A program made the translations under genes and the position numbers. A stretch of DNA of 28,645 bases, taken from a virus. The DNA is taken from IMG/VR virus record IMGVR_UViG_3300024259_000123, positions 1 to 28,645 of that record. One strand, written 5' to 3'. Shown here in pieces: positions 13,320 to 15,954 of this stretch. The number at the start of each line of letters is the position of its first letter. Positions within the stretch are counted from its first letter, which is position 1. The notes under the pieces are model-generated. The model made no database searches and was not told the DNA's origin. It saw only the letters and a program-made list of their open reading frames with translations.

Positions 13320-13946
13320 ATGAGAAGTACATATGAAGGCACAAAATACTTGGTTGAATGTTTCCAGCAATCAACCGGTGGTCGTAGACTGCTAATTGAG
13401 GGCATGAAAACCGCTCAAGACCTACCGGCACATTTATCAATTCAGATTCAACCGACCCGTTTTGGTTTAGGAGGCTTCCGAGTTTATCTTATCAGCGAAG
13501 ATGCCGATATCAAAGACGGGCCGCTTGGTGAGGTAAGTGCTGCCCGCCCGATGCCATCAGATTATGGCAAAGCACTTGATGCATATGAGGTTACATTCGC
13601 CGGTGCTCCGGATGGTTGGGGACCTTTGCTATATGACATCGCCATGGAGGTCGCGGCTGAAAACGGTTCCGGCATCATGCCAGATCGCAAATCAGTGTCC
13701 TATTCAGCCCAAGGAATTTGGGAATATTACCTAGAATCGCGTGATGATGTAGAGCATGTTCAACTGGACAATATGCAAAACCAGCTAACACCACAAGATG
13801 ATGACAATGCACTGCAACACTCAGCTCGCCGCGCCAGTAGCGACTGGGTCGACTCAGAACTTAGCAAAATGTACAGAACAAGACTCGGGGCAACACCGAC
13901 ATTAGATTTCCTTCGTCAAGCAGGAAAGCTGGACGATTGGAGATAA
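13320..13946 (+). CDS. hypothetical protein, WGPLLYD[IV]AME family (paralog of 15430)
   Basis: 208 aa. Shares the block ...WGPLLYDIAMEVAAENGSGIMPDRKSVSYSAQGIWEYY with the 15430 product (WGPLLYDVAMEYATKEGDGLMADRDPVSDEAQNVWNHY). Confidence 0.55.
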   Translation: MRSTYEGTKYLVECFQQSTGGRRLLIEGMKTAQDLPAHLSIQIQPTRFGLGGFRVYLISEDADIKDGPLGEVSAARPMPSDYGKALDAYEVTFAGAPDGWGPLLYDIAMEVAAENGSGIMPDRKSVSYSAQGIWEYYLESRDDVEHVQLDNMQNQLTPQDDDNALQHSARRASSDWVDSELSKMYRTRLGATPTLDFLRQAGKLDDWR

Positions 13947-13947
13947 T

Positions 13948-14601
13948 ATGAGCAGCCTAATCACATTCATAAAAAGGATCCTGACCGAGGACGCAGCATT
14001 TGGCGAAGAGTGGCTCTCCCCAAAGGTCGTCAACTTTCTTATTTCAACGTATGCAAAAGAGAGCTCAATCCTCGGTAAATTGAAGTGGCAATACGGGAGC
14101 CTTCCTAGTCGTATATGGGGACGATATAGCCCTCATTACGCTCGACTCACCGTCAACAAAGCTAAGACCAAGAACATGTTCAAACAGCAGGTGAACACAA
14201 TACTTCACGAAATCCAGCATTGGAACCAGCATGTAAAGCATGGTGAAGAGAAAGGCGGTGATATAGATCGACAGACGCTGTACCGGTCAATCACAGCACA
14301 ATGGAGATGGAATGGTAGCACGTATGGATACCGAGCATCTCCACATGAAGTTGACGCCAGAGCATTCGCTGAGAAGAATGTCAATGACGCGCTGTCAAGG
14401 GCAGGTCGTCATGCGGCCGGCAAGATTGAGGTTGAGGATAAGGACGAGGCATGGGAAGAGATTCTTGATGTCCTGTCTGACTACGACGAAATCACCCGCA
14501 AGGAAATCGGCCAAGAGCTAATGGACTTCGGTATGAACGATGCAAAGAACATGCAGCGGGCAATCAAGGATCTGAAAGACCTGGGCGTCGTGATAAAGTA
14601 A
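13948..14601 (+). CDS. putative HExxH zinc metallopeptidase
   Basis: 217 aa. ILHEIQHWNQH contains the HExxH motif. SD GGAGAT. N-terminus RILTEDAAF is shared with the 974 gene. Confidence 0.45.
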   Translation: MSSLITFIKRILTEDAAFGEEWLSPKVVNFLISTYAKESSILGKLKWQYGSLPSRIWGRYSPHYARLTVNKAKTKNMFKQQVNTILHEIQHWNQHVKHGEEKGGDIDRQTLYRSITAQWRWNGSTYGYRASPHEVDARAFAEKNVNDALSRAGRHAAGKIEVEDKDEAWEEILDVLSDYDEITRKEIGQELMDFGMNDAKNMQRAIKDLKDLGVVIK

Positions 14602-14602
14602 C

Positions 14603-15433
14603 ATGAAACTCCTCCGCGAATATATTGGGATGCTACTTGCAGAAAAAACGCTATTGCTGTACCATCGAACGAACAACGCCGCCGCGATACAGCGAAATGG
14701 TTTTACCTCGAAGATAAAAACGGGTTTTGGAACAGAGGTTTATTTTTCAACAAGTCCTAATGGCGAAGCAACGAATGATTATGGAAATGAGCTTGTGGCA
14801 ATTGAAATACCTGAGCAATATGCAAACTTAGACGACGAATTTCCTGATGGCGAACGACACTATTGGGTTTCGGCGAAAGATATTTCTCGGTTCGGCAATC
14901 TAGTAGAGCAAAAAATGCTTACCGAAAGAAAGCTAAGGGTTTTTGATTTTGATGATACGCTGGCGATGACCGATTCAATGATCATCTTGAACAAGGCATC
15001 CGGTGAGACGATAGAACAGACGCCAGCCGAGTGGTCGATCTATAAACCTGTCAAAGGTGACGAATTCGACTATAGCCAATTTGGTGGTGCCCTCAAAAAC
15101 CCGCAGGCAATCAAGGGGCACATGAAAATCCTTCGCAGGGTTTTGGCAGCCGGAAGCCAAGGCAGGCATGTGGTGATTTTGACTGCTCGAGGTGATGCCG
15201 CAAGGATAGGAATACTTGATTTCCTAGAAGACATTGGTATAGATACAAGCAGCATCGAATTGGTGACGCTAGGCAATTCAGACCCGCAAGTCAAAGCAGA
15301 CTGGATTGAAGAAAAAATCAACAACGGCCATGACGACATTTACTTTATAGATGACTCAGCGAAGAACATAAAAGCCGTCGCCGCACTGGCGGGCAAATAC
15401 CCAAAGACAAAACTGAGGGCTCAATTGGTATGA
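14603..15433 (+). CDS. two-domain protein: unknown N-terminal domain (YHRT motif) plus C-terminal HAD-superfamily phosphatase
   Basis: 276 aa. HAD motif I VFDFDDTL, motif II VVILTAR, motif IV YFIDDS. The N-terminus MKLLREYIGMLLAEK nearly duplicates the 15430 N-terminus. Confidence 0.55.
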   Translation: MKLLREYIGMLLAEKTLLLYHRTNNAAAIQRNGFTSKIKTGFGTEVYFSTSPNGEATNDYGNELVAIEIPEQYANLDDEFPDGERHYWVSAKDISRFGNLVEQKMLTERKLRVFDFDDTLAMTDSMIILNKASGETIEQTPAEWSIYKPVKGDEFDYSQFGGALKNPQAIKGHMKILRRVLAAGSQGRHVVILTARGDAARIGILDFLEDIGIDTSSIELVTLGNSDPQVKADWIEEKINNGHDDIYFIDDSAKNIKAVAALAGKYPKTKLRAQLV

Positions 15434-15954
15434 AGCTCCTCCGTGAATACATTGAAATACTCCTCGAGCGTGCCGTCGGTATCAATGACCTAGACGATGT
15501 GTATATCACCATTGACTCGTCTGCAATGGATGAGTACGGTGTACACATTTACTACAGCGACAAATCAAAGAAGCCCATCGATCATGGCGGAACACCCCTC
15601 GGCGAGATGTACATTGACCCACCGGCATCAGTAGAAACGATGCATGATATCGCCGGGAACGTCTGGATGATAAACTTCGTCAGGGCATCAAAATCATGGG
15701 GACCGTTACTATACGATGTCGCCATGGAGTATGCCACAAAGGAAGGCGATGGGCTCATGGCCGACCGCGACCCAGTTTCAGATGAAGCCCAAAATGTATG
15801 GAACCACTACCGTGATTACCGCCCGGATGTGACTGGAACGAATATTGATGAGGTCGGCGAATTCTCAGACACTCCCGCTCTTGGCATGTGCTGGACAAAA
15901 CCTCCAACAACATTGAAAAAACTCAAATCAATGAAGAAACTATTAGAAAAGTAA
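15430..15954 (+). CDS. hypothetical protein, WGPLLYD[IV]AME family (paralog of 13320)
   Basis: 174 aa. Start overlaps the upstream stop (ATGA). N-terminus MKLLREYIEILLER. Confidence 0.55.
   Translation: MKLLREYIEILLERAVGINDLDDVYITIDSSAMDEYGVHIYYSDKSKKPIDHGGTPLGEMYIDPPASVETMHDIAGNVWMINFVRASKSWGPLLYDVAMEYATKEGDGLMADRDPVSDEAQNVWNHYRDYRPDVTGTNIDEVGEFSDTPALGMCWTKPPTTLKKLKSMKKLLEK

Follow-up and report, generated by a model that had tools for sequence, protein, structure and literature searches.

Why do proteins of different kinds, encoded within one stretch of phage DNA, begin with similar short sequences? The question is raised by a 28,645-nt fragment of a large uncultured phage (IMG/VR record IMGVR_UViG_3300024259_000123, here called the window), nearly all genes of which lie on the plus strand. 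The original prediction, made from the sequence of this stretch, described four separate motif groups and proposed that they are T4-type capsid-targeting or propeptide sequences. Sequence comparisons indicate instead a single N-terminal leader of 14 residues, of which the four groups are diverged copies. It has two subtypes that can stand in for each other, type A (consensus MKLLREYIRELLTE) and type B (consensus MKITKRQLRRIIKE). The two subtypes have the pattern M-K-h-x-x-x-x-h-R-x-h-h-x-E in common and replace each other on the same protein families. The leader is amphipathic, with hydrophobic residues at positions 3/4, 7/8 and 11/12 and Glu at position 14. It is located at the N terminus of nine window genes, internally in one more (5487) and on an ADP-ribosyltransferase-like gene cut by the left edge of the window, and roughly one in four genes of this jumbo-phage fragment begins with it. 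A role as a secretion signal was rejected because the leader has neither a hydrophobic core nor a twin-arginine motif.

A HMMER profile of the 16-residue leader was too weak and blended the subtypes, and was replaced by two ungapped 14-position matrices (A and B) with empirical nulls. The matrices were trained only on the loci of other phages. The first 30 residues of the 40 window proteins were scored, with 6035 internal positions of the same proteins as the null. The matches, named by the first nucleotide of their genes, are clear for 14603, 15430, 10716, 6326 and 25842 and weaker for 13948, 974 and 4533 (corrected p of 0.01-0.05). All N-terminal matches are located at, or a few residues from, the N terminus, and the sole strong match among the internal positions is the site in 5487. 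Gene 13320 has no match in the ungapped test and aligns when a 6-residue insertion is allowed. The leader genes, with one leaderless gene for comparison, are the following.

1-977, plus strand: 3' portion of a gene that encodes a PARP-like ADP-ribosyltransferase (464 aa in full), with a type A leader MELLRQYVRSLLVE immediately beyond the window edge.
974-1495, plus strand: GNAT-like protein with a degenerate type A leader MNLEQLEIIIEGILTE (nt 974-1021; matrix p ~0.015).
4533-5486, plus strand: 317-aa protein with a degenerate type A leader MSNDSFLVECFSRLLWE (nt 4533-4583; matrix p 0.046).
5487-6293, plus strand: fusion of a 94-residue N-terminal module, a former type B leader LRITEQKLRQMVRN (nt 5769-5810) and a body.
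6326-6595, plus strand: 89-aa protein with a type B leader MKISEQKLRKMIRE (nt 6326-6367; type B score 27.9).
10716-11393, plus strand: 225-aa protein with a type A-like leader MNNNLREFVNEVLSD, the final residue of which is D instead of E.
13320-13946, plus strand: member of the GWGPLLYD family with an interrupted leader, ..KYLVECFQQ, STGGRR and LLIE (nt 13320-13400).
13948-14601, plus strand: HExxH protein with a degenerate type A leader MSSLITFIKRILTE (nt 13948-13989; matrix p ~0.01).
14603-15433, plus strand: fusion with a canonical type A leader MKLLREYIGMLLAE (nt 14603-14644; type A score 31.1).
15430-15954, plus strand: member of the GWGPLLYD family with a type A leader MKLLREYIEILLE (nt 15430-15468), one residue under the consensus length.
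25842-26330, plus strand: 162-aa protein with a type B leader MKITENKLRNVVKRALSE (nt 25842-25895; type B score 8.0 at offset 1, p ~0.01).
26379-27011, plus strand: HAD or 5'-nucleotidase-like protein without a leader (comparison case).

The N termini quoted by the original prediction are all in the sequence, including ..EGILTENAKF in 974, ..KRILTEDAAF in 13948, SFLVECF in 4533 and KYLVECF in 13320, with 15430 quoted as MKLLREYIEILLER and the motif copy of 25842 as MKITENKLRNVVKR. Their division into four groups does not stand, because canonical leaders are found at the corresponding position in homologues of 974, 13948 and 4533. Homologues of 974 (E values of 1e-29 to 1e-32) start with MSLLREYIKEILNE or MNLLREYVRELITE. 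Those of 4533 start with M.(E/D)LLKEYI..LKE, LSLRECIRELINE or MKISESILRKRVRK, before a conserved AGDRGF block, and those of 13948 start with MHLLRQYVRCLLE, MNALREFVELFVE or MKITESQLRARVRK, or are leaderless and start at a conserved F.EWLSP block. The second and fourth groups are the C-terminal and N-terminal halves, respectively, of degenerate type A leaders: ILTE(N/D)A.F is the end of the leader joined to the start of the body, and (F/Y)LVECF is a degenerate LLREYI. In the family alignment of 13320, which has 47 leader-bearing homologues, YLVECF stands under LLREYI, followed by the 6-residue insertion and by LLIEG under LLTEA. Gene 10716 and the gene at the left edge are leader copies that had been missed. 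The type A score of 10716 (2.8 at offset 2) is at the floor of the empirical p, its start agrees with the call of a 225-aa gene in locus L003, and its weak homologues bear canonical leaders.

Each motif had been said to end in an (L/I)-x-E site. Such a site is present in the leaders of 974, 4533, 6326, 13320, 13948, 14603 and 15430, and the description thus holds for most copies in the window. However, the leader of 10716 ends in D, that of 25842 ends in V-K-R with an L-S-E four residues farther on (a displaced site), and the relic in 5487 has no such site.

The bodies behind the leaders differ in kind. The gene cut by the left edge has a weak Pfam PARP match (E of 9.7e-5, under the curated cut-off); its full 464-aa form is located on a contig of the same phage (locus L169, 8610-10004), where the type A score is 33.6. 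The match of 974 to Pfam Acetyltransf_1 (GNAT) is borderline (20.6 bits vs. a cut-off of 20.7), and a HExxH...HEVDAR pattern is common to 13948 and locus L006 (6270). No match was found for 25842 in Pfam or PHROG. The family of 15430, of which 13320 is a paralogue, has 170 homologues, all metagenomic and without a Pfam domain. Nearly all of them start with MKLLREYIRELLTEAAKGP.DLP and a minority with MKITRRQLRQLIRE, MKLIMENWRKYLSE or MKLTLSKLKLLIEE instead; their bodies, only ~35% identical, are much less conserved than the leader. In the AlphaFold2 model of 15430 (predicted template-modelling score of 0.83), the leader is a low-confidence helix outside the confident domain, with a mean predicted local distance difference test score of 45 for residues 1-10. 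A fold search gave weak matches only, to the acetyl-CoA-binding GNAT-type domains of ICL2 and Elp3 (E of 0.1-0.5).

Two window genes have a second leader inside. Gene 14603 consists of its leader, a ~90-residue domain, what is left of a second leader (..QKMLTE, nt ~14909-14932) and a HAD phosphatase. The HAD phosphatase of the fusion named by the original prediction has matches to Pfam DUF2608/HAD and to the PHROG polynucleotide-kinase phosphatase family. Residues 103-276 have 68% identity to a 182-aa protein starting with MRLLREYIREILSENKLRVFDFDD, and the joint still reads ..QKMLTERKLRVFDFDD. An ADP-ribosyltransferase-like assignment of the N-terminal domain was not supported (BLAST E of 17 against the PARP-like protein of the window). 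In 5487, the internal leader occupies residues 95-108 and has the top score of the 6035 internal positions. Its first codon is CTG, preceded by a Shine-Dalgarno-like AGAGGGA (AGAGGGAAAATACA), and in an 86%-identical relative (P0141) the same leader starts with Met (MRITEQKLRQMVRNVL). By its sequence, the internal leader is taken as a relic of gene fusion. The comparison gene 26379 has ~41% identity to proteins starting with MKYLRQYIREVLE or MTTLRTYIREVLE, and the alignment starts past their leader. Two type B leader genes are located a few kb upstream of the window in the same phage, and a P-loop kinase ~9 kb downstream starts with MKMLRQYIRRVLRE, bringing the total for this phage to ~14 leader genes in ~48 kb.

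The leader is widespread in related phage DNA. A degenerate DNA pattern for MKLLREYI matched 23 stretches of IMG/VR viral contigs, mostly of 64-284 kb, which together with the loci around homologues of 15430 comprise 1.25 Mb of DNA from related uncultured phages. In this DNA, 342 leader open reading frames (ORFs) with a length of 50 aa or more were counted, compared with none in the same 1.25 Mb read reversed; 285 of the ORFs are unique (169 type A and 116 type B). The leader is strictly N-terminal: 243 of the 285 proteins have no in-frame Met upstream of it, and it begins a median of 8 codons after the preceding stop. Conservation is sharp up to residue 14, or residue 16 in type B, and drops off steeply beyond it. 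Position 12 is L or I in 163 of 169 type A leaders and I or V in 115 of 116 type B leaders, and position 14 is Glu in 134 and 108 of them, respectively; [L/I]-x-E stands at residues 12-14 in ~79% of type A and 93% of type B leaders. Within type A, L4 (164/169), Y7 (137/169) and I8 (132/169) are well conserved, E10 is found in only 62 of 169, and the constant Glu is at position 14.

The leader is also modular. After removal of the leader, the proteins fall into 123 BLAST clusters, 76 of which are singletons. Many clusters mix types A and B, and a single family may bear leader A, leader B or none. The proteins had been described as otherwise unrelated, which agrees with these 123 unrelated body families and fails for some pairs such as the paralogues 13320 and 15430. 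The bodies include AAA_33/Zeta-type kinases, GNAT proteins, an RNase_T-type exonuclease, an HD_4 protein, a 2H-phosphoesterase-like protein and a Fic-domain protein (Pfam hit flagged as weak). In the relatives, leader genes occur in runs of 8-13 consecutive genes. The carriers are uncultured phages, mostly from marine samples, with contigs up to ~300 kb.

The leader resembles sequences that target proteins to the T4 head. The capsid-targeting sequence (CTS) carried by T4's internal proteins IPI, IPII and IPIII and by Alt was reportedly described by Mullaney and Black in 1996. In the T4 record, IPII and IPIII start with MKTYQEFIAE/A, IPI with MKTFKEF..ITE/A, Alt with MELITE/LFDE, gp24 with MAKINELLRE/S, gp22 with MLKEQLIAEA and gp21 with MNEPQLLIE (the slash follows the [L/I]-x-E site). 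The type A sequence MKLLREYIRE-LLTE shares M1, K2, E6, I8 and E10 with the IPIII tag, has L where the tag has Y (position 4) and Y where the tag has F (position 7), and adds an extra L-T-E where the conservation ends. Encapsidation needs no more of IPIII than its first 10 residues, of which residues 4 and 7 serve targeting and residues 8 and 10 processing, and a CTS-like role has been suggested for LIE-9 of gp21 itself (PMC9026906). Alt is cleaved at ITE-6 and LTE-619 (PMC5694885). The S77 prohead proteases start with M(S/N)K.LL(R/I)E(Y/F), e.g. MSKKMLLREYYELC..DLLTE, and thereby resemble type A leaders. Similar N termini are found in the head module of cultured distant relatives, one of which is Flavobacterium phage immuto (vB_FspM_immuto), with genes 190 (MKKSQLRQIIKEAL) and 198 (MKKSQIVKAVQEVLEE).

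Leader genes are also associated with the protease gene. Searches with T4 proteins against all fetched loci located T4-like TerL, portal, protease and major capsid protein (MCP) genes on several contigs, at a distance of 10 kb or less from genes of the 15430 family. One contig of 53 kb has a 15430-family gene between the portal and protease genes, and this protease (locus L064) matches Pfam Peptidase_S77 (PF03420) with an E of 6e-29. Sampling IMG/VR twice by the S77 protease alone gave 80 and 78 loci, 158 altogether. Leader ORFs are present in 13 of the 80 and 51 of the 78 (64/158), compared with 1 and 0 in the reversed-DNA nulls. In these loci, 21 leader ORFs start no more than 500 nt upstream of the protease gene, and 22 have their end within 150 nt of its start, where gp68 is located in T4; 9 are directly downstream of the protease gene, at the position of gp22. 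A further 75 are located 6-10 kb upstream of the protease, past the terminase gene. No leader ORFs were found in the TerL/portal or capsid/tail stretches of the 158 loci, and no contig name among the loci matches the jumbo contigs with leader arrays. The adjacency applies to relatives; the leader genes of the window itself sit among auxiliary genes, which include the PARP-like ADP-ribosyltransferase and two RNA ligases; the window also has several homing-endonuclease-like genes.

Because of the likeness to the T4 CTS, the N termini of the proteases and the leader genes beside the protease gene, the best explanation of the leader, and one that we hold with moderate confidence, is a T4-type capsid-targeting tag. 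The proposal made from the window sequence is thus supported in part: its central idea and the modularity of the leader agree with the comparative evidence, whereas its split into four motifs is wrong, some pairs called unrelated are paralogues and some leaders lack the cleavage motif. Weaker points in favour of the tag are the low-confidence helix ahead of a confident domain in the model of 15430, the slight scarcity of [L/I]-x-E in the cargo bodies and signs of a T4-type head, namely an MCP-like N terminus encoded in the window (22969-23499) and the T4-like head genes of phage LR756500. By analogy with T4, the leader is probably a mark of enzymes that enter the capsid and are injected together with the DNA. 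As the head assembles, the leader would bind its protein to the scaffolding core of the prohead. A T4-type (S77, gp21-like) prohead protease, which we infer for the window phage, would cut after [L/I]-x-E at residues 12-14, so that the mature enzyme would stay in the capsid and be delivered along with the DNA. The putative cargo encoded in or near the window comprises the ADP-ribosyltransferase-like protein, GNAT-like proteins, the HExxH protein, the HAD phosphatase fusion, the P-loop kinase and several small proteins. Extension from the protease-adjacent type B genes to the enzymes is suggested because types A and B are interchangeable, because the protease N termini resemble type A and because T4 Alt provides a precedent.

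Several observations weigh against the capsid-targeting tag. Neither structural genes nor a prohead protease were found in the ~48 kb of this phage that were read (the window and ~10 kb on each side). The adjacency to the protease concerns mainly type B leaders on small proteins, which may belong to the core or scaffold. Among the window leaders, several (10716, 25842 and the 5487 relic) are degenerate or have no [L/I]-x-E, and much of the cargo is of a housekeeping type (kinases, phosphatases and an exonuclease), for which no advantage of packaging is evident. The fixation of TAC ATA AGR at codons 7-9 of type A goes beyond what a role at the protein level explains. In addition, the whole genome of the huge phage LR756500 (462 kb), the nearest complete genome by its major vault protein (MVP)-like gene, has T4-like portal, S77 protease, capsid and terminase genes and no leader ORF above the threshold. 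Thus, the leader is lineage-specific rather than general in huge T4-like phages, and LR756500 is no stand-in for the window phage.

Two further observations concern head genes. In LR756500.1, a phage of 24% GC, an S77-like protease domain opens a 632-aa ORF (~226700-228623, minus strand), and the protease may be fused to a scaffold-like region. In the window, the first ~100 residues of a 176-aa protein (22969-23499, plus strand) resemble the N terminus of a T4-like MCP, with the pattern EKW.KTGLL.GL...LLENQAK...FP...RVF and a pairwise E of 2e-9 against the MCP of locus L050. A homologue search in a database of 5.8 billion proteins gave three small proteins only and no capsid protein. The gene could code for a shortened paralogue of the capsid protein or for one that has borrowed the propeptide of the MCP.

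The leader could also target the prohead while the proteins that bear it are core or scaffold components, like gp67, gp68 and gp22, to be degraded or expelled at maturation. The type B genes flanking the protease are small (~80-170 aa), often acidic or of low complexity, and occupy the gp68 and gp22 positions, and the T4 core proteins are cut into fragments (PMC5694885). However, the majority of the proteins with a leader are 150-600 aa long and are folded enzymes (kinase, HAD, GNAT, exonuclease, HD, Fic and ADP-ribosyltransferase-like), the enzyme arrays are located away from the head genes, and T4 Alt, itself an ADP-ribosyltransferase, is a precedent for a packaged enzyme. Moreover, [L/I]-x-E is not enriched in the cargo bodies, where it is slightly under-represented (observed/expected of 0.93, z of -1.5), unlike in the other ORFs of the same loci, where it is over-represented (1.11, z of +4.8), although the control set is crude. 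A general core or scaffold function is therefore unlikely.

It is unlikely to a similar degree that the leader is a helix for docking or oligomerisation in some non-capsid assembly, such as a multi-enzyme complex, a membrane or an MVP compartment; such a leader would not be cleaved by a prohead protease. The idea has some basis in the window, which encodes an 870-aa MVP homologue (8015-10627, plus strand; MVP_shoulder E of 4.6e-21, Vault_3 E of 1.2e-8). The sole deposited relatives of this gene are in the huge uncultured phages LR756500, LR756501 and LR756503 (36-41% identity). Eukaryotic vaults load cargo via a dedicated tag, many of the cargo proteins are enzymes of metabolism or of RNA-repair type and could work jointly, and the leader is predicted to be an exposed amphipathic helix. 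However, LR756500 has an MVP homologue (40.6% identity) and no leader ORF above the threshold, whereas small T4-like contigs bear leaders and no MVP was noticed in the parts fetched. Thus, leader and MVP are decoupled, and a vault-targeting role is unlikely. Docking of this kind also gives no role to the invariant [L/I]-x-E at the boundary and leaves aside the clustering of leader genes at the S77 protease and the likeness to the T4 CTS and the protease N termini.

The third possibility is that the conserved 5' segment acts mainly as a nucleic-acid or expression signal, i.e. a translation-initiation element or ramp, a rare-codon gate or a recombination patch. Codons were counted in type A leaders of the jumbo-phage arrays (loci L006, L012, L026 and others), with the following results.

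Codon R5: CGN in 97 of 105, compared with 48% in gene bodies.
Codon Y7: TAC in 84 of 105, compared with 44% in gene bodies.
Codon I8: ATA in 95 of 98, compared with 32% in gene bodies.
Codon R9: AGR in 93 of 95, compared with 52% in gene bodies.

Codons 5-9 are thus fixed as CGY GAR TAC ATA AGR, and codons 5 and 7-9 are fixed beyond what the amino acids need, while the neighbouring Leu codons vary freely. Selection acts on the peptide, however, because positions 3, 4, 11 and 12 draw on all six Leu codons and the codons for Glu and Lys vary. Genes 14603 and 15430 differ at three nucleotides in codons 1-8, all of them synonymous; their nucleotide identity, given as ~80% by the original prediction, is 21/24 over these first 8 codons and 29/42 (69%) over 14 codons, and so is not 80% throughout. 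The two canonical type A copies in the window lack the ATA-AGR core, and types A and B differ throughout in DNA, yet they share the hydrophobic/Glu pattern and replace each other. We therefore consider a mainly nucleic-acid function improbable, and an RNA- or codon-level role possible as an additional function.

The leader is, in addition, a homology patch by which cargo cassettes are gained, lost and fused, and recombination through it explains the genome change that is visible. A sister strain (L260, 11794-12402) has an extra 112-aa leader gene (MKISEQKLRKVIRE...) directly before the 89-aa gene, where the window has the single gene 6326. The latter consists of the upstream flank and the first 30 nt of the first sister-strain gene, followed by the rest of the second; therefore, the deletion crossed over inside the leader. 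Several homologues of 4533 (among P0143, P0145, P0146 and P0147) end with ..ENLVREYVRSIL or ..ESLLRIYIKHLLS, the frame running into the next leader, and P0141, P0142 and P0144 are full in-frame fusions of two leader proteins. Judged from these sequences, read-through or fusion at leaders appears frequent. The deletion crossover and the common in-frame fusions suit a recombination patch, which accounts for the spread of the leader but not for its upkeep at the protein level or its adjacency to the protease. Chance and the common descent of tandem paralogues, despite the true paralogy of 13320 and 15430 and the frequency of short amphipathic N-terminal helices, are excluded by the 342 real vs. 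0 reversed-DNA hits, the 123 unrelated clusters with distinct known folds, and a leader far better conserved than the ~35% identical bodies.

If the leader is a capsid tag, a sequence rule would replace the need for virion proteomics of a cultured T4-like phage, and the tag alone would predict injected proteins from metagenomes. The CTS principle would grow from three or four T-even internal proteins to more than 100 families, some large phages would deliver a substantial set of enzymes with their DNA, and new packaging tags would become available for phage engineering. A wider picture can be put forward only tentatively: a lineage of uncultured phages, mostly marine and some of jumbo size, might pre-load dozens of enzymes by one universal 14-residue tag and inject a host-takeover and repair proteome, with the tag doubling as a recombination handle and the ATA-AGR codons possibly gating translation. 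Its conjectural cargo would comprise kinases, phosphatases, nucleases, ADP-ribosyltransferase-like, Fic, (p)ppGpp-hydrolase-like HD and GNAT-like proteins. The CTS concept is established for T-even phages; the large multi-family 14-residue version is the new part. A full-text literature search gave no description of the motif strings or of such a leader in marine or huge phages. In the deposited phage collection, no match to a 26-residue type A leader or to the proteins 14603, 15430 and 25842 was found at the sensitivity used, and no deposited phage genome shares DNA with the region. Exact copies of window genes are present on metagenomic contigs up to 104 kb, and a protein identical to one gene of the window phage (P0140) is on record on a 318 kb contig.

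The window has other features of its own. Genes of RNA-repair type are located at 3825-4484, 16745-17650 and 14603-15433 of the window and at 17449-19200 and 19853 onward of locus L033. Two RNA-ligase-family genes, the polynucleotide-kinase-phosphatase-like HAD gene, a CCA-adding/poly(A)-polymerase-family gene and the downstream AAA_33 kinase form a possible RNA-repair toolkit, two genes of which bear the leader. A GMP reductase/IMPDH, a nicotinamide mononucleotide adenylyltransferase-Nudix fusion, a NAMPT and an adenylosuccinate synthetase (17586-21241 and 24479-25495, plus strand) form a block for nucleotide and nicotinamide adenine dinucleotide (NAD) salvage, which resembles the NAD salvage pair of vibriophage KVP40. 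Other assemblies start the Nudix gene later than listed. Three tRNA genes (Gly-GCC, Arg-TCG and Thr-GGT) are located at 7657-7886 on the plus strand, and a phage transfer-messenger RNA (tmRNA) with the tag peptide ANDNSEYSYAQAA at 27089-27448 on the plus strand, its 3' end overlapped by an ORF listed at 27390. The sequence AGATAYTTA occurs four times, at 6680-6688, 11641-11649, 13306-13314 and 23572-23580, compared with 0.25 expected. All copies are on the plus strand and end 5-6 nt before the starts of 6694, 11655, 13320 and 23586, leaving no room for a Shine-Dalgarno sequence; a similar TGATATTTA is located at ~10702. Three of the four genes are homing-endonuclease-like, and AGATAYTTA may be a promoter or a leaderless-start signal.

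The closest known system is the T4 CTS, an N-terminal tag of 10-20 residues on unrelated fast-evolving proteins (PMC9026906, PMC5694885). Both have the register M-K-x-h-x-E-aromatic-I-x-E, with E10 kept in a minority of type A leaders (62/169), and end in [L/I]-x-E, the cleavage motif of gp21. As with T4 Alt, one cargo here is ADP-ribosyltransferase-like, and as in the T4 CTS loci, the gene content is plastic, with cassettes swapped through the conserved leader. However, the leader here has 14-16 residues and two subtypes (LLREYIRELLTE and ITKRQLRRIIKE), and the main predicted cut is after residue 14 rather than residue 10 as in T4. The scale also differs: the leader genes number ~14 in 48 kb, and the body families, for the most part enzymes, number at least 123, all known from sequence alone. 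In relatives, type B leader genes flank the S77 protease gene at the positions that gp68 and gp22 have in T4, and the S77 proteases start with ..LL(R/I)E(Y/F).., as type A leaders do, in likeness to gp21 with its LIE-9. Unlike the T4 core proteins gp67, gp68 and gp22, the leader proteins are mostly enzymes, and no similarity to the core proteins is recognisable past the short N-terminal pattern.

The encapsulin cargo-loading peptides and the vault INT domain are similar in principle, since a short modular tag sends diverse enzymes into a protein shell. However, these tags are usually C-terminal, uncleaved and unrelated in sequence to the leader, and for vault cargo the co-occurrence of leader and MVP failed in LR756500, which has the MVP and no leaders. 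The phages phiKZ, 201phi2-1 and SPN3US differ from the window phage in that their propeptides are mostly longer than 100 residues, with no one shared short leader, and in that the motif is A/S/G-x-E with an S80 protease, whereas it is [L/I]-x-E with S77 here. Their propeptides are nevertheless thought to act like a CTS (PMC5694885), and, as proposed here, these phages have many packaged proteins that a gp21-related protease cuts after Glu in a short motif.

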